A DNA stretch of 64,000 nucleotides from an uncultured Planctomycetota bacterium (GCA_963845755.1 CAWJTV010000011.1:160001-224000), one strand, 5' to 3'; shown: positions 20,545-35,714, counted from the stretch's first letter. A program made the numbers and translations. The notes: a model not told the origin generated them from the sequence alone.

Positions 20545-20589
20545 ACGGCCGAGGGCGGCCAGTCCTTGTGATGTCCTCGGCCATGCTGG

Positions 20590-20675
20590 AAAACCTGAGA
20601 GAGAAAACCGGCACCCTCTTGCGGGCGCCCTTTTCATGGTGTACAAGACGGCCGTCTGGCATGGTTCGGTAATCG
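20590..20675 (+). promoter_or_regulatory. Putative promoter region of ncRNA unit 1 (duplicated at about 21035-21115)
   Basis: agaaaaccggcaccctcttgcgggcgcc..gtgtacaagac aligns with agaagccggtaacctcttgcggcgcc..gtgcacaaaac upstream of unit 2. Confidence 0.45.
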
Positions 20676-20940
20676 ACTCTCGGCATCTGAGAGGACAGGT
20701 CTAGCTCGGTGCTCTGCACCAGGACGGCGTTGCGCCGCCCGAGCGTATGGCTGGTCATGCTGCACAACGAAGGCTGTTTCAGGCCCGCTGATCCCCCGGA
20801 CAGTGCCCGGTATGTCGGCGGTCCTGGGCCAACCCCGCCGATCGTGGTTCCGCCGACATACCGGGCACTGTCCGGGGGGCGGGCCAGAGAGCCTTCGATG
20901 TCCCAGGTCTTGTGGTAGATGTCTCTTGGATGCCGAGGGT
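20676..20940 (+). ncRNA. Retron msr-msd-like ncRNA, copy 1
   Basis: Terminal a1/a2-like inverted repeats (actctcggcatc..gaca..tcta / tagatgtc..gatgccgagggt). Candidate branching G at 20704 in tAGC. Two msr hairpins (GGTGC-tct-GCACC; CGGCG-ttg-CGCCG) closed by gctcgg/ccgagc. Perfect 29-bp msd stem 20793-20821/20850-20878 with outer stems. Confidence 0.8.
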
Positions 20941-20972
20941 GGGTTGCCGCGTGAATCAACGGGCAGCCCACC
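20938..20972 (+). terminator. Hairpin 3' of ncRNA copy 1 (terminator or processing hairpin)
   Basis: ggtgggttgcc / ggcagcccacc with no U-tract; a homologous hairpin follows copy 2. Confidence 0.4.
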
Positions 20973-21118
20973 TGCCCTATCAAGCCTCGTGTTTCAATAA
21001 ATCAACAATCGGTGCCAGGGTCGTCCACCCGTCGTGTCTGAAATCGAAAAGAAGCCGGTAACCTCTTGCGGCGCCTCGGGATTAGTGCACAAAACATCCG
21101 TTCTTTGTCGTGACGATC

Positions 21119-21375
21119 GAGCATTTGGGAGGACAGGTCTAGCTCGGTGTTCTGCACCAGGGCGGTGTTGCGCCGCCCGAGCGTATGGCTGGTCATGCTG
21201 CACAACGAAGGCTGTTTCAGGCCCGCTGATCCCCCGGAAAACTTCCGGCATGCGGGCGGGCCTGGGACAACCCTGCCGGTCGTGGTTCCGCCCGCATGCC
21301 GGAAGTTTTCCGGGGGGCGGGCCAGAGAGCCTTCGTTGTCCCAGGTCTTGTGGTAGATGAGACTCCGCGATGCTC
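21119..21375 (+). ncRNA. Retron msr-msd-like ncRNA, copy 2
   Basis: Homologous to copy 1 at +438 bp. a1/a2-like gagcat..ggag / ctcc..atgctc; candidate branching G at 21142; perfect 29-bp stem 21231-21259/21288-21316; 12-bp outer stem acaacgaaggct/agccttcgttgt. Confidence 0.8.
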
Positions 21376-21376
21376 A

Positions 21377-21411
21377 GGGTGGGCTGTCTCGATAACCTCG
21401 AGCAGCCCCCC
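21377..21411 (+). terminator. Hairpin 3' of ncRNA copy 2
   Basis: gggctg(t)ctcga / tcgagcagccc. Confidence 0.4.
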
Positions 21412-21498
21412 TACCTCTCAAAACATCACGTGGGTCAGAGTTTCCGGGCTGACGACCCATTCGTGTGGGGCTGGAAAGCCTGATCTATATTATCGGTT

Positions 21499-24400
21499 AT
21501 GAGGCACACTCTCGTGTTGACTGGACTCAATCTGGACGACGTCCAACGCGCCTGGGAGTCACGAGACCTCGAGCTGACCAGGGTCGTCCTCGAACTGGCC
21601 GGCCAGCCCGACAAGCCGCCCGCCACGCCTCCGCGCGAGGGCGCGCCGACGTTCGCCAAGTTCGTGGCTGAACTACATGACCAGGCCTTCGCGCAAAACC
21701 CCCGAGGAGCAGAAGCACTATCGAGTCGAGGGGATGCAGGCGCTCGAATCGCCGACGGCCGAAGGTCCTCTTCCCGACCGGCTCCGGATTCATGTGATCA
21801 TCGCGGCGCTCTGGGAAGACAACGGTCCCTTCGCCCGGTCGTGCCTGCTTGAGATCATCGCCCAGGTGCCGTTGCGCTATGGTCCGTGGCGAGCGCTGAA
21901 GCGGATCTTCAAGGAGGCCGAGGCTCGCGACGACACCGAGGTCTTTGGGCGCTGGCGGCTAGAGTGGATTCGTCGCAGATCGCGCAGGAGATCACCGGCC
22001 GCACACTCGACTATCTCCGCCGTCGTGCCTGGCGATACCTGCGCCGAACGGGCCAATCCCGTCCCGCCTGTTACGCCGACGTGGCCGCCGACGTGCTGGC
22101 TCGCTACGAGGATACCACGCCCTGGCATAACACCTGGGTCGCCAACCACATTTTCTACCATGAGACGGGCGACTATACCACTTCGAACTTCCATCTCAAG
22201 AAGGGGCGGTCGGACCTGAACGACCGCGCGTTCGCCGCGCTCTGGCAGCGGAGCCCGCGCCCGCTGTTCGGCCTGCTGGAGCGCGCGCCGGAGCGACCGG
22301 GTCCGGCAGTTCGCCGCCGACTGTTTGAAGGCCGACTTCCGCGCCTCGCTCCGCGAGGTCGAGCCCGCCTGGGTGGCCCGGCTGGTGAGTGTGGGCAGCG
22401 GGCCGGCGGACGAGTTCGTCGTCTGGGTGCTGAACAATGTCCCGAAGTTCGAGCAGGGCGCGTTTCGTTCGCTCGGTCTGCACCAGGCGGTGCTCCGGCT
22501 GTTCGACTCCCCCTCGGACACGGCCGGAGCCTATGCCGCCGAGTACGCCCGCACCCACGCCCGCGACCTGCCGGTGGATGAACTCGTCCGCCTGGTGGAC
22601 AATCGCCATGGCGCCGTCCGCAAGCTCGCCGTCGACCTGATCCAGGAGCGTGACCCGCGCAAGAAGATCGGACTGGATGCCTGGGGCCGGCTGCTCGAAT
22701 CGACCCGTGGCCAGTCGTTGGCAGCGACGGCTCTTCGCAAGCACTTCAGCGCCCGCGAGCTCACGCCCGACTGGTTCCGCGAACGGCTGTTCACGCCGAA
22801 GCAGGATCCGTTCGGGCACGTCCAGAACCTGCTGCTCGAGATTCATCCGGCCGAATCGCTGGGGCCGGGTTACTTCGTCGGACTTATCGAGATGGCCCAT
22901 AAGCAGGAGGACTGGACTCCGAACCGCGTCTTCCAATTCACCCAGTTCATCAAGGAGCAGCTCGCGCGGTTCGACCTCAACGCGCTCGATCGCGACGTCC
23001 TCCGCCGTCTCTTCCTGAAATCGTCCGCCATGACGATCATCCCCTGGATCGAGGAGGGCCGGCTCAAGCCCCAGGTGCTGGGCCTCGACTTCCTCAAGGC
23101 CGTGGCGTTTCACCCCGACTGGGAAACCGACCCCTGGATCGTCGAGCTGCGCCGGAACGGCCCCGCCTGGGCGCGCGAGCTGACGTTCGACGAGGGCATG
23201 TCGGAGAAGGTCCTTGGCTGGCTGGGCGACGTCCGCCGGTTTGCGCCTTCGGATATGGGGTTTGCTTGGTTGTTGAAGTTGGCGGCTCGGGGCGAGCCGC
23301 GATATCACAACTTCGCCGTCGAGACGATGATCAAGGGTTTCACACCCGCCGACTTCGCACCGAGCGTCCCCGAAGCCGCCGCGGCGCCTGCTGCTGGGCC
23401 GGCGACGGTCGACCTCGGCGGCGCCTCGTTCCTGTTCACGGGCAAGCTGGCGACGATGCAGCGCAAGGAGGCCGAGGACAAGGTCCGTCGCGCGGGCGGC
23501 TCGGCGGCCTCGAGTGTGACCGCCAAGCTCCATTACCTCGTCATCGGCGATGAGGGCTCGCCGCTGTATGGTCACGGCAAGAAGGGCGCGAAGCAGCTCA
23601 AGGGCGAGGAGCTCAATGCCGCGGGCGCGAACATCCGGATCATCTCGGAGACCGCATTCCTGAAGATGCTCGCCGGTCATGCGCCACGGGCCTCTCAGGG
23701 CGACGCGCTCGCCGGCGCCGAGCGGCTCTGGGAGATGGCCATCGTCCCCGGCGCGGCCGACGCCCCGCTCGGCCGGTTCGCCATGAAGTTCATTCTTCGC
23801 CATCACCCCGACATCGCTCTGGCTCAGACCGATCGACCTGTCGATCCCGGTGCCGAGATCCCCGCTGAGTTCCTCGGCTTCGATCGAGTGAGACCCTTGT
23901 TCTCGGAGACCCGCAAACCGCTCCGCGACCTGGCGCTGGAGCTGGCTCGGTGGGAGTTCGCACGCTGGTCTCCATCGGCCGACGAGCTGGTCCTTCTGGC
24001 CGAGAATCCGCACGCGGATGTTCGCCGGTTCGTGGCCCAGTCGCTCCTGGCCGACGACGCGCCCGAGCATCGCCGATACCGGATCGACCTCGAGTCGCTC
24101 ACGTCTGCGGCGGTCTTCCGTTTCTGCGAGTCGGCTGACGAGTTCGACGCGCGCCCTGGGCATGCAGCTCATCGACCGATCGGCCCGGTTCCGGCAGCCC
24201 GAGGAACTCTTCCGCCTGACCGAGAGCCCCGATCGGAGGGTCCGCGGATTCGTGATCCGGACGCTCTGGTCGCTCTATCGCGACCGGGGAATCACCGAGG
24301 GCTGGAGGCCGTACGTCCCGCCCGCGACGACCGTGGGCGCGGCGGCGAAGAAGGCCGCGCAAGTTCAGGCCGACAGCCGGGGTCCTGGTCCTCCAGCCCG

Positions 24401-24743
24401 GCCCGAGCAGTTGCCCGCGAGCCTGCGCGACCTATGGGGCTTTCTGCGTCGCACCCTGTTCGAGATCCCCCCACCGCGCCCCGAGAAGCGCGACCCGGAA
24501 GCCGGGGAATCGGGCGAACGGCTCAAGCCGTTCCCGGCGCGGCGGGCGAAACTGGCGCTGGTCGAAACCCTGCGCGACCTGGCCCTCGAGGATGCCGACT
24601 TTGCTCGCGGTGCGCTGCCGATCCTCGAGGAGTTCATGGTCTCCCGGGGCGTGACGGAGAGAGCCGCGTGCCTGGTCGCCGTCACCCGGATTCGACATAC
24701 CCACGCCGTGCTCCGCCTCGCAAGCGAAGGAGGTGCCTCATGA
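21499..24743 (+). CDS. Retron-associated large helical (HEAT/ARM-like) protein with central BRCT domain, several frameshifts
   Basis: Pieces 21499, 21677, 21886, 22325 and 24018 join. BRCT signature SFLFTGKLATMQRKEAEDKVRRAGGSAASSVTAKLHYLVIG near 23420-23550. Stop overlaps the next ATG (ATGA 24740-24743). Confidence 0.75.
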
Positions 24744-27700
24744 CCGCGCCGGCCGATAAGCACCTCACCTACCGTGGCGAGATCAAGGGAGCCGTCGGCG
24801 TCGGCGGCACGCTGGCGTTTGTCACCGTCCATCCCGAGGGTCAACCCACGGCCCTCTACCGGCTCGATGCGGACAAGCTGACGCTCGACACTGACCCGTT
24901 GCCGAGAGGCGGCACGACGATCACGGCCGTCGGCGAGAGCCTCTTCCTGGCCGGCGGTGATGGTCAGGTCTACGTGGGCTCGATCGCTTCGGGAGAGCCG
25001 AAACCGCTGGGCGCCGCCCTCGATATCCCGGCGACGGCCCTGGCTCCACTGGCCGATAGCCGATTGGCCGCCCTCGTTGGATCGCGCGTCGTCATCCTGG
25101 CCACCAAGAACGGCAAGTCGGTCCAGACGCTCGACCTGCCCGAGCCGGGGACATCGTTGGCGGCCGACGCGACAGGGCGCTGGCTGGCGGTCGGGACGGC
25201 GAAGGGGACTGTCCTGGTCTTCGACGCCGAGGACAAGCCTGAGTTTTTGCTGAGTGCTTCGGAGCGGCTGCACGAGGGTGCGGTCAGTGCGATCTTGTTC
25301 GAGCCGGACGAGCTGCGGTTTCTCTCGGCGGGGGCCGACCAGAAGCTCCTGTTGACCCACGCCCGCGGCAAGCTCGAGCCCGAGGACAAGGGGCGAGGCA
25401 ACAACCACACCGACGTCATCAAGGCGATGATCTGGGGGCCCGGCGATCGCCTCTACACGGGAGCCTTCGACGCCGCGATCAAGTCGTGGCCGCGGGTGGG
25501 CGCGATCAAGCCGGCGACGACCAAGGACGGGGTCGGCCGCGTCGTCGCCCTGGCGATGGTCCAGGTCCACGAGCGGCCCCGGCTTGTTGGGGCGTGCGAA
25601 GACCAGACGATCCGGGTTTTTCCGGTCGACGCGGCGGGCAAGATCGGCGAGCTGGCACACTGGGTTCGTGACGCTTACGCCCGGGCCAAGCACGAGCTGT
25701 CGCAGGACGATCCCACCCGTCGCGAGGAAGCCCTGAAAGCCCTCGCGGGTTACGCCGACACGCGCGCCCTGGGCCTGATCGCCGAGCAGGCCGACGCCGA
25801 CGCCGACCACGCGCTTCGCCTTCATGCGGCCGACCTCCTCGGCGCGTCCGGTCATGCCCGGGCCGCAACCCTGCTGGAGAAGCTACTCGGACATCGGGAC
25901 GAGGCGGTCCGCGTCTCGGCGTTCCGGGGACTACGCCGGCATCTCGGCGAGACCGACCTCCGCCCGATCGACCTGGCGCTGAAGGCGGATAAGCCCGACG
26001 TCGGCCGGCTGGCCGTGCAGGCTCTGGAAACTCTCGCGACGAAGGACGACCAGGCCCTGGCGCGGCTGACCGACGCCCTCAACGCCCGGGTGCCCGAGGT
26101 CCGCCTGGCGGCCGTGGTGAGCCTCGAATCGGCCGCGGACCCGCGATCGCCCGAGTCGAACCTGGCGGCGCTGACCTCGAAGCATGCCGATGTCCGCCGC
26201 TCCGCACTGCTGCGACTCTACCGGCGCGGGCTGCTCGGCGAGCCGGCCGTCCAGTCGGCGCTGCGGCGCCGGGCCGAGGACGCCGATCCCGATGTCCGCC
26301 GCACCGCGTTCTTGCTCGCAATCCACACCCGCGAGCGGCTGCTTCAGGCCCTTCGGTCGCGCGATCCCGACTTGCAGCGACAGCTCGTCGAGTTGGAGGA
26401 CACGGGTCATGGCGAGCCAGTAGGGCCAGATGTGCCGACCGATCGAGGTGCAGACGGCGCTCTGGTGCTCACAGAGCACCCTACGGGGTCGCAGAAAAAG
26501 AAGGCCAAGCCCGCCAAGACGACCTCCACCACGGCGGAGCCATCTCTCGAAGACTTCGACTTCGAGCCCTTGCTCCAGGCGACGGCCAGCCGGTGCTGGA
26601 CACCTGCCTCCGGGGGGCGCGAGGGCTGGCGATGCTGGGCGATCCGCGGGCGTTCGGCCTTCTACTCCAACTCAGCCGGGAAGAGGACAAGACGGCCCGC
26701 GCCGAGGTCTGCCGGGCGATGGCTGCGCTCGACGATCCGCGCGCGGCCGAGCGGCTCCGCTCGATGCTTCACGACCCGGAGCCCGAGGTCCGCGACGCCG
26801 CCTTCACCGCCATGGCCCGTCTCCACCAAGCCAGTCCCTTGGCAGCCGCCGAGTCGGGCCTGAACGCCTCGCATGAAGATGTACGCCGGCGCGGTCTCCA
26901 ACTCCTGGTCGAGCAGATCCGCAAGGCCAAGACCGGAGGTGCCGCCGGGCCGGCCCTGTCGCTGCTCTCGCGCGCCCTCAACGACAGCTTCCCGGCGGTC
27001 CGGTCCGAGGCGTTCAAGTCGGCGCTGGGCCTCCACGCGGGCGGCGCCGGCGCGGGCACTCTCCGGTTCGCCTTGCAGAGCGTTCATGCCGACGTTCGCC
27101 GGGAGGTCCTCACAGAGGTGATGGCCCAGGTGGGCGAGCCCTGGGGCTGGGACCTCCTGCTGGAGTTCTTCAACGATCCCGACCCGGCGCTGCGGGGCGA
27201 AACGTTCGAGTTTGCCCTCAAGAAGACCAGAGGGCTCGAGTTCCTCGAGGCGGCGCTCGCCTCACGATACCCCGACCTTCGCGAGCGGTCGGTCGCCGAG
27301 CTGGTCAAGAAGCACACCGCCGCGGCACAGGCGCTGCTGGTCCGGGCACTCGACGATGAGGACCCCGAGGTTCGACTTGCCGCGATGAAATCGCTGGTCG
27401 ATGCCGACGCCCTGCCTGCGCTGATGGAGGCCCTCGGAAACACGCATCCCGACGTGTGCCTCAGCGCGGCCAAGGCCTTCGCCCGTCATGGCGACTCCCG
27501 GCGGCTCGAGCCGCTCCTCGTCCTGGCAACGGCCCCGGAACCCTTGGAGCAAGAGCGTCGTGACGACTGGCTCAAGCAGGCCGAGTCGGCCCTGGACGGC
27601 TTGGGTGAGCTGGGCGATCCGGCCGCGTTGGCGCACGTGATCCCGCTCCTGGACAGTCCGCGGACGGCGATCCGCCTCCAGGCAGCTCGGGCCCTGGTCT

Positions 27701-30700
27701 GGGTGTCTCGGCCCGGAACCACCGACGCGCTGCGACAGGCGATCCAGCACGCCGACGTCGCCGTGAAGTACCACGCCGCCAAGGGCCTCGCCTTTACCGG
27801 CGATGGCTCGGTGGTCCCGCTCGTGTTTTCCGAGGCGGCCGGCAAGATCGTGAGCGTCGGCGAGCAGATCGCCGCCGCGCTGGCCGTCGGGGCCGCGGGC
27901 GAGGACAGGCTCGCCGTCTCTCTGGACGACACGAATGAGGACGTCCGCGACCGCGCCCTGGTCCTCTTGATGATGCTCGAATGGAAGGACCCGGACGGCA
28001 CGGCCGCGCGTTGCCTCGCCTGCCTGGCGAGCCGGACGCCCCGGATGCGCCTCACCGCCGCCCGAGCACTCGAAGCCCTGGTCGAGCCCGGCATCTTCGA
28101 GCCCTTCATTATCAGTCTGGTCAACGAACGGGGCGACAAGCCCGAATGGAAGATCGCGGCGCCGACCGTAAATGCCTTCGCCGAAATGCTCGTCCATGGC
28201 GACGCGCAGCTCCGGGCGCGCACGGCTCGGCTCTTTGCCCGGCTCAATGAGAAGGAACAGGCCGCCTTCGACCAGGCCTGGGCGGTACACGAGCAACGGT
28301 TTGCCCGCGAGCTCGCCGAGCTAATCCGTCAGGCCAAGGCACGGAATCCGGTCGCGCCGCGATACACGCGCGATCAACTCCGTGAGCTGGCCTTCGGGGC
28401 GTATGTCGGCTTAGTCCGCGAGCAGGGCAGCTCGAAAGGCAAGGGTCAATCCGGCACCGATCCGGCCATCGTGCGCGTCCGGCAGTCGGCGCTGGACCGT
28501 CTGCTCGCGCTGGCGGGCGCCGATGCACATCTCGCCGCCGCGTCGCGGCCGGTTTTCGTGCAGGCGCTCGGCGATCCGAACCAGGCTGTCCGGTTCCAGG
28601 CGTTCGAGCAGGTCCAGAAGATCGGGCTGGGAACAACGGAGCTGGCCGCCGAGGCGCTGGCCACCGGGCACGTCAACCTGGGCGTCAAGGGTCTGGAGTT
28701 GCTCGCCGGCGACCGTTCCGAGGCCGAAGGCGCGGCCGTGCTCGAACGGGCGATGCTGGCACGTACCGACGACCTGGCCATCGAGTCCGCCAAGCTGTTG
28801 ATCGCGCGTCGAGGGGCCGTGGCCGTGGCCAGCCGTGCTGTGGAGGCCACTCACCCACAACTCCGCAACCAGGCCGTCAACTGGCTTGCCGCCGAATACG
28901 ACAAGGACCCTGGCGCCGGGAAAGCGCTACGGTCGGCCCTGTCCTCGCGATATCAGGCCGTCCGTGAAGCGGCGGCGTTCGCGCTAGCCATCAAGAAGGA
29001 CCCCGCCGCTTTCGAGCCCCTGGTTGGGATCCTGGCCACCGCGTCCGTGGGGAGGCAACAACAACGTGTCATCCAGACGATGGAGACCCAGGGCGACCCG
29101 CGCGCCGGAGGGGTCTTCCTCGACCGGATCGAGAACGACCCGGCCGGGACGGCGATGGTCAACGAGCTGCTCAAGGGAGTCGGCCGGTTCCGGCGCCCCG
29201 AGACTGCCGATCGGTTGCTGAGTCACTGGGAGAAAGACACGAAACGACACGATGCCGTCTTCAACGCCCTGGTGACGATCAGCGGCTACGATCAACGGAT
29301 CGAGGACACCGAGGACGAGCAGCCCGAATCCTTCTGGCTAGAGAAGCAATTCCCTCGTCATGACGATGTGCTCGCCCGGTTGATGGACCGGGTCTCGGCG
29401 CCGGCCGAAGCCAAGTTCCTGGCCCGGCTGATTCCCGGGGCCCGCTGGGCGCGCGGCAAGCCGGTCGATCCCGTCCTGTCGGGTTTGATCAACCACGCCA
29501 ATGACGAGGTCCGGCAGAAAGCCGTCGAGGCCATCGGCTGGCGGCTTCGCAAGCGCGGGAGCGAGGCCGAGCCTCTGAAGAAGGCCCTCGCGCATCGCGA
29601 CACGATTACCCAGTTCCTCGCCGCCGAGGCGCTGGCCAAGGCCGGCCGCGGCGATGGGATGAACGTGTTGCTGGCGAGCATCGACTTCGCCACCGACCTG
29701 GATATTCGCCGCCGTGCCGTGCTCGCCCTTGGCGAGTTGGCCGACGAGCGGGCGCTGGACGTGCTTCTCAAGCTTGCCGGCGAGGATGGCCACGCGCTCC
29801 AGGAGCAGGCCCTCGAGGCCATCGGCCATCTGGGTCGCTCTCAGCGGGCCGACGAAGTGTTCAAGGTCCTGGAGCGGCACGCGAAGGGAACCGCCGGCAT
29901 AGCATGGCGGGCCCTCAACGGCCTGCGCTGGCTCAACACGCGGGCGGCGTGGGAGGTCATCCGGGCACGGACGTCCGACCCATCGTGTCCGTTCTGGGAA
30001 GAATCCGTCAGTCTGCTGGGCTACAACAACGATCCGGCTACCCGCGACTTGCTGCTCCGTTTGCTCGCCAAGGAGGCCGATGTGGTCGAGGCGGCAATGG
30101 CGGCCGCTCGCCGTCTCTGGGGCCAGGACTCGCTCGAGCCGGATTACGCGGTAGTCCAGAACGAAGACCTGGATCATCTGGATGATCACGAGAAGATACT
30201 GGCCCGGCTCCGCGACCGGGGCGAGCCGCGGCGCATCTTCGAGATCCTCCCGAAGTGTCCCGCCCCGGTGCGCGCGACGCTCGCCACCGGACTGTTGAAT
30301 CGGGCCGAGCCGCCCGTGGCCGAGGCGCTAGCCGCGCTCGACAGCCCGGACCCGACCACCGCCGGGACGGCAGCCCACATCCTGGGCCGAGCCGGCGCCG
30401 GACGGCCGAGGCCGGGCCGGCGGTGATCAATGCGCTGGTGAAGTGGCGAAAGCTCTGGGAGGAACAACGGCCGTCGTTCGACCGGAGCGTCGCCGGCCTG
30501 ATCCGCCGGAAGAACGAACAGGCCGACGGGCTCACCGCGTGCGTCCGGGATCTGGTCTGGGCGGCGGGCCGGCTGGGCGTTGGCACCGAGTCCCTGGCGG
30601 AGGCCGCCACCGCGCGGCCGGACGACGACGAGTATCAGCCGATCCGCCTGGCCGCCGTCCTGGCCCTCGGCTCGGCCACGATGTCCCCGGGCGCGATTGC

Positions 30701-31172
30701 GGCCCTGGAGTCGGCCGCGTTCACGGGCGCCCCCGAGATCCGCGCCGCCGCCGCGCAGGCCATCGCCCGGCGCGACCCCGAGCGGGCCGCCAGGCTCGCT
30801 GACCAGTTCCTGTCCGATCGCGTCGGCTTCCACCGGCTCACGCTCGACGGCGCGAGGGACCTCGAGGAGACGCTCCGAACTGCCGCGCGCCAGGTCCATT
30901 ATCAAGGCATCGTCCTCCCGGGCCTGATCGATCGCGGCGACGTCTCGGCGCTGGCCGTCGTGGCCGAGGATCGCGCGCTGCCCGAGGCCGCGCGGCTGGG
31001 GGCCGTCGAGGGGCTGGCCGCGATGGCCCGGGAGCCGGCCGAAGACGTACTTCGCAGGGTCGGGATGAGCACCGTCGAAGACGAGGAATTGCGCAAAGCC
31101 GCCTGGCGCGGGCTCCGCCGCTCGAAGCGGGCGCGGAAGACCCGGGCGACGAAGGTCGAGGTGAAGTCATGA
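24740..31172 (+). CDS. Retron-associated giant protein (~2100 aa): N-terminal WD40-like beta-propeller plus many HEAT repeats, frameshifts near 26590 and 30400
   Basis: AGGAGG ribosome-binding site. WD-like blades (HEGAVSAILF..FLSAGADQK; HTDVIKAM..LYTGAFDAAIKSW) followed by repeated HEAT motifs (D.D.EVR.AA). ATGA overlap with the next gene. Confidence 0.8.
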
Positions 31173-33039
31173 GCCCTGCCGACGAGACTCGCGAAGAGAC
31201 TCAGGAGCCGGCCGCAGCCGAGATCGCGACGACCGAGGTCCGCATGGCCTATGCCGGGATGAGCACGCTGGTCGCCACCGAGGAGACCGCGGGCTGACCC
31301 TGGCGAGCAATCTCCGCCGCGACCCAGTGCGGTTCGAGGCCACCATCAAGGAGCCGCTTCGGTTCCGCGAGGCGATGGCCGCGCTCTACGCGGTTGTGGC
31401 CAGCGACTTCCGCTATGTGCCCAAGGACCGGACCGCCTATGTGGCCTACAGCCGGATGCGCCGGGAGTCGTCGAGCCTGAATGCTTGGCAGGCCCAGCGC
31501 GCCTATTTCTCCTGGCTGCTGCGCAACGACCCATTGGCGTTTGTAATCCTCGACCCCGTGATCACGGTTCATCCGGATCAGGTCCTTTTCGAGGTCTTCA
31601 GCAAGGATGAGGGAGCCTATGCGAAGTTGGGCGTGGATCGCGACGCCTTCGACCACGCCGAGACGCCGGCCTTCGGCACGACGAACGTGGACTTCAGCCA
31701 GTCGCTCTATCAGGGCTTGCAGCAGATGCGGAGCTACCGCGAGACCCGGCTGAGCATCGGCCAGGAGGGCGTGAAGTTCGCCACGACTACCGCGGGCGAG
31801 GTCCTGGAGAAGCGGATCCGCGTGCCCGACTCATGGCTGCGCGGCTTCCTCCAGGTCCAGTCGTCGGCCGCGCTGCCGCGCGACCGGTTCGACCTGGCGC
31901 CGGTGGACTTGTACAACGCCCTGCGCCACCTGCGGCTGAACGCCGATCGCAAGGGCCAGCGGCGGGGTTTGCGGATCGAGCTGGTCCCGGGCGAGCCGCC
32001 GCGCCTGGTGCTCGAGCCTTGGAACGTGGTGATCCCCGCGACGACCGGCACGTTCAAGGGGAAGGCCGCGCGGGCCGTCCGCATCTGGGGCCGGCGCCGG
32101 CTGTCGCTGCTGCACCGGTTTCTCCCGTTCACGGAAGAGGTTGAGGTCCACGTGCTGGGCAGCGGTCTGCCGAGCTTCTGGGTCCTGCGTGCGCCTGGCA
32201 TGACGTTGACCCTCGGCCTGACCGGCTTCACCGCGGCCAACTGGTCGCAGGCGATCAACTTCGATCTCCTGCTGCCGCGGAAGACCGCAACGACGACCCA
32301 GCCGCTCGACGCGGTCCTCGCCCATCTGCACGAACACTGGTCGGCAGGGGCCGGCGAGCTGGCCCGCGCGACCGGCCTGGCCTGGCCCGCCTTGACCGAG
32401 GCGCTCCAACTCGGCTGCCAGCAGGGGAAGATCATGTATGACCTCGCGAGCGACGTCTACCGATTCCGTCCGCTGACGGACGTCCCGCTCGACCCGGCCC
32501 GGCTGGAGTTTCGCGACAGCCGCGAGCGGATCGCCCACGACCTATTGATCCGCCGCGGCGCGGTCAAGATCGTCTCCGAGAACCGCATCCCGGGCACCGG
32601 CCTGGAGCTGACCGGCCAGGTCACCGTGACCGAGGACCGGCGCGACTATCGTCCCCAGATGCTGCTCGCCGACGAGGGCCAGGTAACCCGCGCCGACTGC
32701 ACCTGCACGGCGTACCGCAAGCAGGGCCTGAAGGCCGGCCGGTGCGTCCACCTGGTGGCGTTGCGGCTGGCCTACGCCGAGCAGGAGGCCCGCCGGCTCA
32801 AGGGGCTCGACCCCTTGCAGGCGATCGCGGTCGAGACCCGGACGTACTCGCGCCGGCACCCGGCCGGCGAGGAAGTCTATCAAGTCTCGCTCGAGCGTCA
32901 ACGACTCAAGATCCGATGGGGCCAGGATGACCAGCCCCGGCGATTGCAGACCTTGACGTTCGACACCGTGGAAGACGCGCGCGGGGCGTTCCTCAACCGG
33001 GCTGCCGATCTGGAAGCGCGCGGGTTCCTCTCGCTCTAG
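31169..33039 (+). CDS. Retron-associated SWIM zinc-finger protein with C-terminal WGR-like domain, frameshift near 31290
   Basis: DPVITVHPD..FEVFSKDE..YA, PDSWLRGFLQVQ; SWIM CxC..CxH (ADCTCTAYRKQGLKAGRCVHLVAL); WGR-like YQVSL..LKIRWGQ..QTLTF...EDARGAF...EARGF. Confidence 0.8.
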
Positions 33040-33059
33040 CCGTCGGCCAGGTTTTCCTG

Positions 33060-33180
33060 AAAACAGGTGGAATAACAGGTGGATTGGGATCAATCGTACA
33101 CTATTTTGTAAAGGCGTTTGTCGAACCCATGAATATATTATATTTTATCATGAATTTTGATAATTGTCTGAAAATAGAAC
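33060..33180 (+). promoter_or_regulatory. AT-rich putative promoter upstream of the retron RT, with a 10-bp direct repeat
   Basis: AACAGGTGGA at 33062-33071 and 33074-33083, then a strongly AT-rich tract (atgaatatattatattttatcatgaattttgataatt). Confidence 0.5.
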
Positions 33181-33239
33181 GTGGGCCGAGCGGCCCTCTT
33201 CGATGACCCGGGCGCAGCGCGCGAAAGGACGGACGAGCG

Positions 33240-34582
33240 ATGTCGCGACTCCAGCAATCCGACCCGATCGCCTTGTGGCGTGCCATCGAGCAGGCTGGCG
33301 GCGTGCAGGCGTATGTGAACGCCCAGCTCGTTGAGCGGGGGTTCCTGGTCCAGCGCCGGGAGACGGACAAGCTATCCGATCGGGAAAAGGACGCTTACAA
33401 GAAGTCGCTCAAGGCCGAGGCGGAGGAGCGCCGGCGGTTGAGTCGCGAGGCCTGGAAGGCCCACAAGGCCACGCACATCGTCCATCTGGGCGAGGGCGTG
33501 TTCTGGACCGAGGGTCGTGGTCACGACAAGTGGGACCTACCCAACGCCGAGGCCCGCGCCGCCGAGAACGAGCTCCCGCCGCTGGACTCGGCCAAGCAAC
33601 TGGCCGAGGCCCTGGGCCTGACCATCGCCGAGCTGCGCCGGCTCGCCTTTCACCGCGATGCAGCCACCGTGCTCAACTACCGACGGTTCACGATCCCCAA
33701 ACGCGATGGCTCCGCGCGGGCCATCTGGGCCCCGCTGCCGCGGTTGAAGACAGCCCAGCGCTGGATCTTGCACAACATCGTCGAGAAGCTGCTCGTCCAT
33801 GGCTCGGTGCATGGCTTCCTCCCCGGTCGCTCGACGCTCACCAACGCCGCCGCCCACGCCGACCCGAAGCTGGTGGTGAAGGTGGACATCAAGGACTTCT
33901 TCCCCACCGTGACGTTCCCTCGGGTCAAGGGGATCTTTCGCAAGGCCGGCTATCGCGAGGAGGTCGCCACGCTGCTGGCGATGATCTGCACCGAATCCCC
34001 CCGCGAGATCGTCGAGCTGGAGGATAAGACGTACTACGTGGCGCTGGGGCCGCGCTGCCTGCCCCAGGCGCACCGACGAGTCCGGCGCTAACCAACACGC
34101 TGGGCCTGCACCTCGACCGCCGGCTCAGCGGGCTGGCGAAGAAACTCGGCTGGCGCTATACCCGCTATGCCGACGACCTGACCTTGAGCCTGCCCAGGAA
34201 CCACCAGGGCCCGCCCCAGGTCGGCACATTGCTCGGCTCGATCCGCCGGATCGTCGAGGACGAAGGTTTCGCGATCCACCCGGACAAGACGGGCGTCCAC
34301 CGTCGCGGGGGCCGGCAGATGATCACCGGCCTGGTCGTCAACGGCGGATCGCCGCGCAGTCCCCGCGACTTCCGCCGCAGGCTCCGAGCCGCCATCCATA
34401 ACCGGACCAACGGCAAGCCCTCACCGGACGGCGAGAGCCTCTCGACATTAATCGGCATGGCGGCCTACGTGTATATGTCTGATCCTGTGCGAGGAGAGAA
34501 GTTCCTGGACGCGCTCCGGGAACTGGATCGAGCACAGGTATCGGCCTCGGCGCGGATCGAGGGGCCGCCGCCCCAGACATGA
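33240..34582 (+). CDS. ret: Retron-type reverse transcriptase (Mx162-like), single frameshift near 34067
   Basis: IPKRDGS.R.I, region X NAAAH, KVDIKDFFP, LPQ(G)APTSP, YTRYADDL (34166-34177), HPDKT, region Y ITGLVVN, LRAAIHN. Long N-terminal extension (AIEQAGG..KATHIVHLGEGVFW) like myxobacterial retron RTs. Confidence 0.93.
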
Positions 34583-34756
34583 TCGCCGTCGTCATTGGCA
34601 ACCATCTCCCAAGTTGTTACGCTGAAGAAAGGAGTGATCAAGAGATGGATGTCGAGACTCGTTAACACCTGGAATACCCCTCCAATGGCCGGATCTCAAG
34701 CGGTCGTTGTGCTCGCGAGGACCCCATGCGAGCGGTCCAGGCTTGGCCCCGCGAAG

Positions 34757-35714
34757 ATGGTGCTGCACGTCGCTTGCGCTCTGGTATCGACCGGTTTGGT
34801 TTGGTGCGGCTGTTCACCAGAACGACCGGACCCGGCGCGGAGGACTTCCTCGCCCAGTCTGGCCGGTGTCGCCTCGACCTCAGCTCGAAGAACGATCGCA
34901 GATCGAGATTCTCGAGGCGCAGAGTGAGCAGGTGATCGACCACATTCGTGGGATCGGCGGATCGGTCGAGCGAGATGAGAACGATCCCAACAAGCCAGTG
35001 ATGACCGTCTTCCTCGATGGCCCCCGCGCCTCGGACGAGGACCTTCGTGACCTGGTCCATTTCGTCAACCTCCGGAGACTGTCCCTGGTTGATTCCTCGA
35101 TCACCGATGCGGGAATGGACAATCTCAGAGGGTCGGCCAATCTCCGGTGGCTATACCTGAGTCGGACGCAGGTGACGGATCGCGGATTAGGACAACTCAG
35201 CGGCCTGACGAAGATGGAGGATCTGGGTCTTTTCCGCACCCGCATCTCGGATCGCGGACTGGCCCACCTCGGGGGAATGAAGAGGCTTCGCATCCTCGAC
35301 CTCAAGGACACGGCGACGACGGACGCGGGCCTGGCTTACCTCGCGGGCCTGACCAATCTGCGAAAGCTCGACCTCCGCGGGACTCGAGTCACCGACACGG
35401 GGATGAGTAGCCTTCGGGGTTTGTCTCGTCTCTGGTCACTCAACCTGGCTGCGACGCGAGTCGGCGACTCGGGGTTGGCCCATCTGAAAGGGTTGGTTCA
35501 CCTACAAGAACTCGACCTCAGCGAGACCAGGATCACCGACGCCGGTCTGGAGCACCTCAAGGGGTTGACCAACCTCCAGGTACTGAATCTCACCGGGACC
35601 TCGGCGACGAATGCCGGAATTCGGGCGATTCGAGATGCCTTGCCGGAAACCACGATCATCCAGGGGCCCGAAACGCGTCCGCCGGAGGATAGGCAGGAGG
35701 GTCCTCCCGGTTAA
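34757..35714 (+). CDS. Leucine-rich repeat protein (planctomycete RI-like LRR), probable frameshift near 34885
   Basis: 24-aa repeats LxxLxLxxTxVTDxGLxHLxGLxx; possible lipoprotein signal (LVWCGC). Confidence 0.85.

Follow-up and report, generated by a model that had tools for sequence, protein, structure and literature searches.

The window analysed here is a stretch of 64,000 nucleotides (G000:C11:160001-224000) from the genome of an uncultured Planctomycetota bacterium (GCA_963845755.1, here G000), and the system in question is a retron in which two tandem copies of a putative template RNA, of msr-msd type, stand at the head of a long operon while the reverse transcriptase (RT) is encoded at its far end. 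The assembly has 14.27 Mb, 64% G+C and 49 contigs, and its near relatives, e.g. Singulisphaera and Tundrisphaera, place the organism in the Isosphaeraceae. From 5' to 3' the locus contains the two template RNA units, genes A, B and C, an AT-rich spacer and the RT gene. The features are the following (window coordinates; ncRNA, non-coding RNA; msDNA, multicopy single-stranded DNA).

20605..20652 (+), promoter-like block of unit 1: -35-like TTGCGG at 20619-20624, 17 nt, -10-like TACAAG at 20642-20647
20667..20949 (+), ncRNA unit 1 (msr-msd), from fold, covariation and a1/a2 duplex: a1 ~20667-20703; predicted branching G 20704 in TAGC; msr hairpins 20705-20743; long msd stem ~20764-20907 with variable helix 20793-20821/20850-20878 and conserved loop 20822-20849; a2 from TAGA 20916-20919 to ~20949; predicted msDNA template ~20756-20915 (~160 nt, ends inferred from the geometry and the Mx162 figures)
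20937..20972 (+), 3' hairpin of unit 1, GGGTGGGTTGCCG / CGGGCAGCCCACC
21052..21098 (+), promoter-like block of unit 2: TTGCGG at 21066-21071, 16 nt, CACAAA at 21088-21093
21105..21387 (+), ncRNA unit 2 (msr-msd): predicted branching G 21142; variable helix 21231-21259/21288-21316; a2 TAGA 21354-21357; predicted msDNA template ~21194-21353
21377..21412 (+), 3' hairpin of unit 2, from fold and consensus structure
21499..24743 (+), gene A: ~1080 aa, HEAT/ARM protein with a marginal BRCT match (22.4 bits); frame changes near 21693, 21949, 22289 and 24143
24740..31172 (+), gene B: ~2140 aa, N-terminal WD40 beta-propeller and many HEAT repeats (Pfam); frame changes near 26596 and 30398
31169..33039 (+), gene C: SWIM-type (CxCx12CxH) with a WGR-like C-terminal tail; frame change near 31291
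33040..33239 (+), spacer: 200 bp, AT-rich; no long inverted repeat, no ncRNA
33240..34582 (+), RT gene: retron RT with NAAAH, YADD and ITG in translation, in two frames

The three genes are coupled by ATGA overlaps, A/B at 24740 and B/C at 31169, as a first-pass annotation of this DNA had read them, and the NAAAH, YADD and ITG motifs that it had named for the RT can be read in the translation. In the window the Pfam HEAT_2 match of the open reading frame (ORF) reaches 210 bits. The SWIM motif of gene C is found in its translation as C-T-C, 12 residues and C-V-H; Pfam gave no SWIM match in this gene at E 0.01. Among the PADLOC models, RT_XIII matched the two RT pieces of the window with 323 and 190 bits and SWIM_XIII matched gene C with 616 bits, the respective values for the intact orthologues of Singulisphaera sp. 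PoT (G034) being 530 and 647 bits. The gene B orthologue of the latter genome matches HEAT-ARM_XIII PDLC02919 with 2159 bits over the whole 1972-position model and its gene A orthologue matches HEAT-ARM_XIII PDLC02921 with 1171 bits. For the intact RT orthologue the next-best PADLOC model scores 309 bits against the 530 bits of RT_XIII, i.e. the margin is above 200 bits.

The locus is a type XIII retron with two HEAT/ARM genes before the SWIM gene. The first-pass annotation had named this type of the classification of Mestre et al. 2020, and both the relevant passage of Table 1 in that paper and the PADLOC models bear this out. The consulted part of the same paper lists, for RT clade 10, a variant in which SWIM is preceded by two HEAT/ARM genes (clusters 259_1 and 1688_1), and gives the SWIM Zn-finger protein of type XIII as cluster 114 with CxCx12CxH. 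All four proteins match the PADLOC models nearly end to end, and the features of the type that are present comprise RT_XIII with YADD and the X and Y regions, SWIM, the upstream HEAT/ARM genes and an msr-msd. The absent feature is an ncRNA gene contiguous with the RT, by which the quoted text of Mestre et al. 2020 defines a retron: in the window the ncRNA precedes the accessory genes, is present twice and is separated from the RT by ~12 kb, and in Nannocystis and Minicystis it is megabases away.

The two RNA units are direct repeats with a period of 438 bp (20660-20990 and 21098-21430), close to the ~440 bp originally proposed. Identity between them is 89% over the 239-nt core (20683-20921 vs 21121-21359) and 86% over the full length of the units. 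Each unit contains a perfect 29-bp inverted repeat, listed above as the variable helix, whose sequence differs between the units and yet is 100% complementary inside each of them. The fold energies are -198.9 kcal/mol for unit 1 (z -11.2) and -195.8 kcal/mol for unit 2 (z -10.5), and in both cases 0 of 100 shuffles were as good. The conserved block that had been described upstream of each unit is present, is promoter-like, and is shared by both units and most units of the relatives, with the consensus TTGC(G/A), ~17 nt, TA(C/G)AA(A/G), ~55-60 nt 5' of the priming G. Since this block precedes each unit, it suggests one promoter per unit, a putative function; a scan with the strict sigma-70 consensus found no promoter at either unit, and the terminator-like matches at 20629-20610 (minus strand) and 21468-21481 are no more than shuffles yield. 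The 3' hairpin of unit 1 may mark the transcript end or offer an alternative pairing with an extended a1; the minimum-energy fold of this unit draws part of the hairpin into a1/a2, and in the consensus structure the corresponding helix 9 has 4 of 7 pairs changed on both sides, with 92.8% of cells paired. Rfam at gathering scores gave 0 matches across the whole window, and no stretch of more than 16 nt of the two variable stems recurs in the rest of the genome, so that no target or source was found for them.

The structure is supported by comparison of 12 homologous units from 9 genomes. In this alignment conservation is seen in the msr part, at the foot of the long stem, in the loop and in the region next to a2, and the mid-stem is hypervariable. 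RNAalifold recovered the two msr hairpins, the long msd stem and the 3' hairpin of the initial description and predicted 88 pairs, 41 of them with compensatory changes. Pairing was found in 96.4% of the cells as compared to 81.6% in shuffles and 38-45% in slid controls, and none of 500 shuffles attained any of the observed pairing measures; the structure was predicted on the same alignment that was used for the pair count, a mild bias, and the effect size is far larger. In the variable helix 26 of 30 pairs are altered on both sides, with 95.6% pairing. The TCTA/TAGA helix closes immediately 5' of the G in TAGC (20704 and 21142, the branch point that had been suggested in a tAGC context), as it does in canonical retrons, and TAGC is given as the commonest priming context among known retrons in the cited section of Simon et al. 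2019 (PMC6868368). Judged from the sequences, a1 and a2 covary beyond the TCTA/TAGA helix: among 105 distinct units the cognate duplexes average -27.2 kcal/mol, versus -18.9 kcal/mol for 833 non-cognate pairings, and 52% of the cognate duplexes fall below the non-cognate 5th percentile. All 23 aligned rows, from at least 4 phyla as labelled, have TAGA at a distance of 210-214 nt from the G (the rows represent 21 distinct units, the two units of the window having entered both alignments). Based on this distance and on the figures given for Retron-Mxa1 (Mx162) in the retrieved part of PMC6868368, i.e. a 71-nt msr, a 162-nt msd and an 8-nt overlap, an msDNA of ~160 nt is predicted.

The nearest unit ends ~11.8 kb before the RT start, and the templates lie 11.8-12.5 kb upstream, which agrees with the ~12 kb stated at first. 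The two units are the only candidate template for the operon RT, because the 200-bp spacer directly before the RT is AT-rich and unstructured. In the usual picture of a retron, the template RNA gene is adjacent to the RT. A recent survey, to go by its excerpted methods, looked for known ncRNA models within 10 kb of the RT on both sides and for new ones in the 600 bp upstream of it (PMC13712802); such pipelines would call the present lineage ncRNA-less because its template is 11.8-12.5 kb upstream or megabases away. Some likeness is seen to Retron-Sen2 (St85) and Vmi1, described in the consulted passage of PMC11701397 as msr-msd, effector gene and RT, as there too the template RNA heads the operon and an effector gene precedes the RT; however, those have one gene of ~1 kb in between and one ncRNA, while the window has three genes, 11.5 kb and two ncRNAs.

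A covariance model of the 104-nt msr core was run against 121 genomes of the family, G000 included, as the first-pass annotation had advised for copy number. The RNA was found in 29 of the 121, with 1 copy in 18 genomes, 2 copies in 10 (G000, G001, G084, G085, G093, G112, G034, G144, G137 and G019, the second copy of the last being at the end of another contig) and 3 tandem copies in one, G086. The tandem spacing is 408-482 bp, and single- and multi-copy states both occur inside single genera. In every relative's locus that reaches that far, the RNA is upstream of gene A. An even sample of the phylum (151 genomes) yielded only 4 weak matches besides G000; this sample under-samples carriers, since the pattern scan described below matched more. 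As to the concern that the unit might be a generic repeat scattered through the genome, G000 has only the two full copies and two fragments, of 46 and 29 nt.

The 46-nt fragment is intergenic (G000:C15:218055-218100, L004 ~1501-1546), 94% identical to the corresponding unit part, and comprises the 3' arm of the conserved stem base and the a2-proximal part, i.e. the portion that would template the predicted msDNA 5' end. A 'partial copy of msDNA' is reported for N. exedens in the title of Lampson et al. 2002, and the fragment calls it to mind.

It could be argued that just one of the two units works as a template and the other is a duplicate heading to decay. The a1/a2 duplex of unit 2 is indeed weaker (-20.3 kcal/mol, vs -37.7 kcal/mol in unit 1), and one copy suffices in 18 of the 29 positive family genomes. 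However, both units keep the invariant columns, the perfect 29-bp helix and the promoter-like block, and tandem pairs or triplets are found in 11 of the 29 positive genomes (8 genera) as well as in Pirellulaceae and Nannocystis. Moreover, both units have positional counterparts in the same-genus genome G001, where the a1-side flank of unit 2 is near-identical and the stem of unit 1 is similar, which suggests that the tandem pair predates the split from G001. We therefore regard the single-template explanation as unlikely.

The RNA co-occurs with one lineage of RT. A search of 36 family genomes found the operon RT lineage (at least 66% identity) in 11, in fragments in G024, and 10 of these 11 have the RNA; in the exception, G033, the 12-kb contig begins only within gene A. 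None of the genomes in this survey that have only a 40-52% paralogous RT has the RNA.

A classical type XIII retron is also present in the same genome (G000:C36:207019-214712; L041 4020-11712, minus strand). It matches WGR_XIII with 536 and 158 bits (two frames), SWIM_XIII with 606 bits and RT_XIII with 608 bits, and its msr-msd, located in the 630-bp gap before the RT, has perfect 16-bp a1/a2 arms and resembles the classical RNA of N. exedens. As this is a second RT_XIII with WGR and SWIM genes in G000, one may ask if the RNAs of the window are templates for it and not for the operon RT. We consider this highly improbable: the C36 RT has its own msr-msd, similar to that of Retron-Nex2 (Ne144), directly upstream, and genomes with only the C36-type RT lineage lack the RNA of the window. 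Ne144-like retrons belong to the same RT clade and have the same SWIM and WGR/HEAT partners as the operon, but their msr-msd, of another sequence family, occupies the 280-630-bp gap that immediately precedes the RT, and their RT is 43-47% identical to the operon RT lineage.

The distribution beyond the family was studied with an exact three-motif pattern, which included the GGCGTTGCGCC hairpin, in one genome per species (185,579 species). There were 109 matches, the taxa being given as labelled in the records. About 83 are Planctomycetota (Isosphaeraceae, Gemmatales, Pirellulales and a Phycisphaera metagenome-assembled genome, MAG) and 22 are Myxococcota in the wide sense (nine Nannocystis, Minicystis, Byssovorax, Polyangiaceae and Bradymonadales); a Desulfobacterales genome, a Verrucomicrobia MAG, a Polaribacter MAG and another bacterium account for one match each. 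The Polaribacter sp. record (L149, a Bacteroidota bin) could be a binning error or a transfer. The initial suggestion that the GGCGTTGCGCC hairpin also occurs in the Mx162 msr found no confirmation, as neither Myxococcus nor Stigmatella is among the 109 matches, and in the literature searched the hairpin string appeared only in papers unrelated to retrons. Mx162 belongs to the same RT clade according to the Table 1 passage of Mestre et al. 2020, and its geometry is similar (212 nt from G to a2 here); it differs in the priming context, which is CAGC in the cited part of PMC6868368 and TAGC here.

The units align at the sequence level across the phyla. In all six loci tested for it, one from Desulfobacterales, one from Verrucomicrobia and four from Planctomycetota (Novipirellula, Gemmatales, Pirellulaceae and Isosphaeraceae), the next ORF is gene A (PDLC02921, 454-597 bits). 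The next ORF is not gene A in the three Nannocystis/Minicystis loci and in two extra copies of Gemmatales. In N. exedens DSM 71 two tandem copies with a period of 334-335 bp are located at 9.285 Mb, followed by cation-efflux, UbiA and metallo-beta-lactamase genes; they align with the window units and share the 212-nt geometry. The intact A-B-SWIM-RT operon of this strain, at 3.66-3.68 Mb, is not accompanied by the RNA, so that 5.6 Mb separate it from the RNA copies, whereas the copies in the window are linked to the RT-bearing operon. N. pusilla also has two tandem copies unlinked to the operon, and Minicystis rosea has one unlinked copy, the RNA-operon distance in the three species being 1.9 to 5.6 Mb or more.

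These distances bear on the idea that the units are not templates but regulate the operon in cis, as a leader or another regulatory RNA. In favour of this, most lineages have them immediately before gene A and in its orientation; against it stands their location megabases from the operon in N. exedens, N. pusilla and Minicystis. The promoter-like block that each unit has of its own also argues against it, and the hypervariable helix on a constant scaffold, the a1/a2 closure and TAGC are retron hallmarks; so the idea seems very unlikely to us.

A second RT locus of N. exedens, at 7.17 Mb, consists of a WGR/HEAT gene, a SWIM gene, a 280-bp gap with a different msr-msd and the RT, and is presumably Ne144. 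The operon RT of N. exedens shares 62-68% identity with its planctomycete counterparts and 45% with the classical RT of its own genome, and the classical RTs of N. exedens and G000 (C36) are 59% identical. By this identity matrix the operon RT lineage is orthologous across phyla. G000 and N. exedens each carry both retron systems.

It is interesting to compare these copies with Retron-Nex1 (Ne160), for which the passage in Simon et al. 2019 (PMC6868368), citing Lampson and Rice 1997, mentions a duplicated msr-msd and no RT within a kilobase. The window has the same arrangement of repeated msr-msd without an adjacent RT, the RT being ~11.8 kb off. As both this brief description and the geometry match, the RNA of the window is likely to belong to the Ne160 family and the operon RT to be the missing enzyme. 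The supplement of Simon et al. 2019 has no Ne160 entry.

Gemmatales genomes contain many more copies, namely 26, 19 and 11 in three genomes and 6 and 3 in two more. Each of the first three has a single RT of the operon lineage (66-68% identity); with these three included, exactly one lineage RT (64-68%) was found in each of the five genomes checked besides G000, which have 1, 2, 11, 19 and 26 RNA copies. In the 26-copy genome one copy is 13.4 kb upstream of the RT and the rest are dispersed. Behind those dispersed copies that were examined, the next ORFs encode a gluconolactonase, esterases, a peptidase, a LysR regulator and, in one case, a YhgA-like transposase, with glutamate synthase one gene beyond the latter; none of 13 proteins neighbouring dispersed Gemmatales copies had a PADLOC match. 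We read 21 copies of this genome: the geometry is 210-212 nt in 20 and 228 nt in one, all 21 stems have energies between -86 and -109 kcal/mol, and one pair only shares the variable segment. In one Gemmatales MAG (G295:C8:15184-24829, L157) four RNA copies stand within 10 kb upstream of the operon, on the operon strand, and the genes between them encode DUF2335, PRiA4_ORF3-like and DUF1990 proteins, an esterase and a gluconolactonase.

Dispersed copies beside unrelated genes (26, 19 and 11 of them), together with the 46-nt partial copy on C15 of G000, would also be compatible with a retron-derived repeat, inert or selfish, that has no current use as a template. Neutral relics, however, would lose their pairing, while 20 of the 21 copies keep the geometry and all 21 have stable stems; a1 and a2 covary; the RNA occurs only with one RT lineage in the family survey; and both G000 copies are at the operon head. 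This makes the relic explanation, in our view, quite unlikely.

The reading frames of the operon require comment, as the assembled sequence contains 8 frame changes in 13.1 kb. The RT is in two frames as one G is missing near 34067, in a G run, by comparison with G001. The first-pass annotation had spoken of a frame-repaired RT; the break that this presupposes is there, whereas a decay of the gene is not borne out, as the rpoB and rpoC genes of the same assembly are broken likewise. Within 7.7 kb, rpoB has 1 break (two frames) and rpoC has 2 (three pieces); they lie at C34:79366-83015 and C34:567489-571586 and are split across reading frames. Because both genes are frame-split, assembly indel errors can be put at about one per 2-3 kb of coding sequence, and the breaks of the operon are most likely errors of the same kind. 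A pseudogene cluster, with the retron dead in this organism, could be argued from the 8 frame changes; against it stand the breaks in rpoB and rpoC. In addition, the single-base gaps between the window and G001 do not coincide in the two genomes and tend to fall in short G/C runs; completeness is 87.9% with only 49 contigs in the assembly; and the orthologous operons are intact in 7 relatives, with proteins of ~1100, 2130-2330, 625-690 and 435-500 aa. A dead retron thus has little to recommend it.

Our preferred interpretation, to which we assign a probability of roughly 0.78, is that of a type XIII retron whose two templates at the operon head are served in trans by the distant RT. Computation shows how the RNA units are built, their covariation, the conserved gene order, the association with this RT lineage and the spread of copy numbers; we infer that msDNA would be synthesized, by this RT and from both copies, in the service of defence. 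The system would consist of the RT, two HEAT/ARM proteins as scaffold and a putative nuclease of SWIM type. Each unit would probably be transcribed separately, from its own promoter-like block, into an RNA of ~300 nt that would close by a1/a2 pairing and so expose the G of TAGC. The RT, encoded at the far end of the operon, would act in trans, prime at the 2'-OH of that G and reverse-transcribe ~160 nt of the long hairpin. Two msDNAs with one scaffold and different stem segments of 22-29 bp would then be present in the cell. By analogy, the RT-msDNA may bind the HEAT/ARM and SWIM proteins in a complex that stays inactive until a phage factor disturbs the msDNA.

Several points weigh against this interpretation. 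Firstly, the operon is broken as assembled, and that it is intact in the genus of the window is itself deduced, because G001 is broken too, at other sites. Secondly, unit 2 could be a poorer template because of its weaker a1/a2 duplex. Thirdly, the dispersed Gemmatales copies beside housekeeping genes could be read as a selfish repeat. Fourthly, the msDNA, the RNA ends and the branch of the window units remain predictions. Fifthly, the N. exedens copies are probably Ne160, an identification that rests on the one-sentence description in the review. Finally, we know of no type XIII retron that was shown to defend against phage.

We also speculate that one RT-effector system may be loaded in trans from a library of templates, two here and up to 26 in Gemmatales, each with its own 22-29-bp hairpin segment on a common scaffold. 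Such an array of msDNA baits would widen the range of sequence-specific phage proteins, e.g. methyltransferases or nucleases, that trip one effector. This extension is tentative, and we hold it for possible rather than probable. If true, it would be the first natural multiplexed retron and would name the missing RT of msDNA-Ne160. The first-pass annotation had taken the multiplexed layout to be uncharacterised. The comparisons support multiplexing, but other genomes have the layout as well, and the Ne160 repeats of 1997, to go by their short description, are a precedent. A candidate RT can be offered for these orphan repeats. The template genes can multiply independently of the RT, as a hypervariable stem on a fixed scaffold, and if all copies are used, many msDNAs would be made naturally on one enzyme, which bears on phage sensing and on multiplexed retron editing. 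Cultured carrier strains exist and allow direct tests, among them Singulisphaera sp. PoT with two copies, S. acidiphila DSM 18658 with at least one and N. exedens DSM 71 with its two unlinked ones.

As to earlier reports, the accessible text of a retron census (PMC10849725) and of a paper on environmental retrons (PMC12548924) contained none of the terms searched, and for natural tandem or multiple retron ncRNAs the retrieved literature passages gave just the words 'two ncRNAs', once, in a retron preprint. We did not find in print the link between RNA and operon (the supplements of Mestre et al. 2020 may bear on it), the operon-head position across phyla or the range of 1 to 26 copies in which the scaffold is constant and the stem hypervariable.

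Contigs of three metatranscriptome studies contain homologous RNA pieces at 85-100% likeness; one of them covers 142 nt of the stem-loop, and another, of 54 nt, is identical to 20871-20924. They hint weakly that RNAs of this family may be expressed, weakly because DNA can occur in RNA libraries. In the public runs the stretch was represented by contigs alone, in which no more than 27% of the sampled words occurred; missing cover over the flanks and gene A carries no weight there, since only the conserved parts of relatives were matchable.

The unit pair had no match in the phage (50,697 records) and plasmid (72,556 records) collections. G000 has 42 RVT_1 matches, several of them equal-scoring and in open frames of 578-701 aa (e.g. 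C41:23230-23874, C41:28745-29389, C47:7452-8096 and C47:18782-19426), which points to a multi-copy retroelement, for example a group II intron. Directly 3' of the RT in the window, an ORF at 34707-35714 (+) strongly matches the leucine-rich-repeat models LRR_4 and LRR_8, with ~72 bits; the operons of the relatives stop at the RT. In an Isosphaeraceae MAG, the gene upstream of a two-copy array (L060:2172-3563) matches PADLOC mad3 with 106 bits, i.e. at least one such locus stands beside another defence gene, that of methylation-associated defence.

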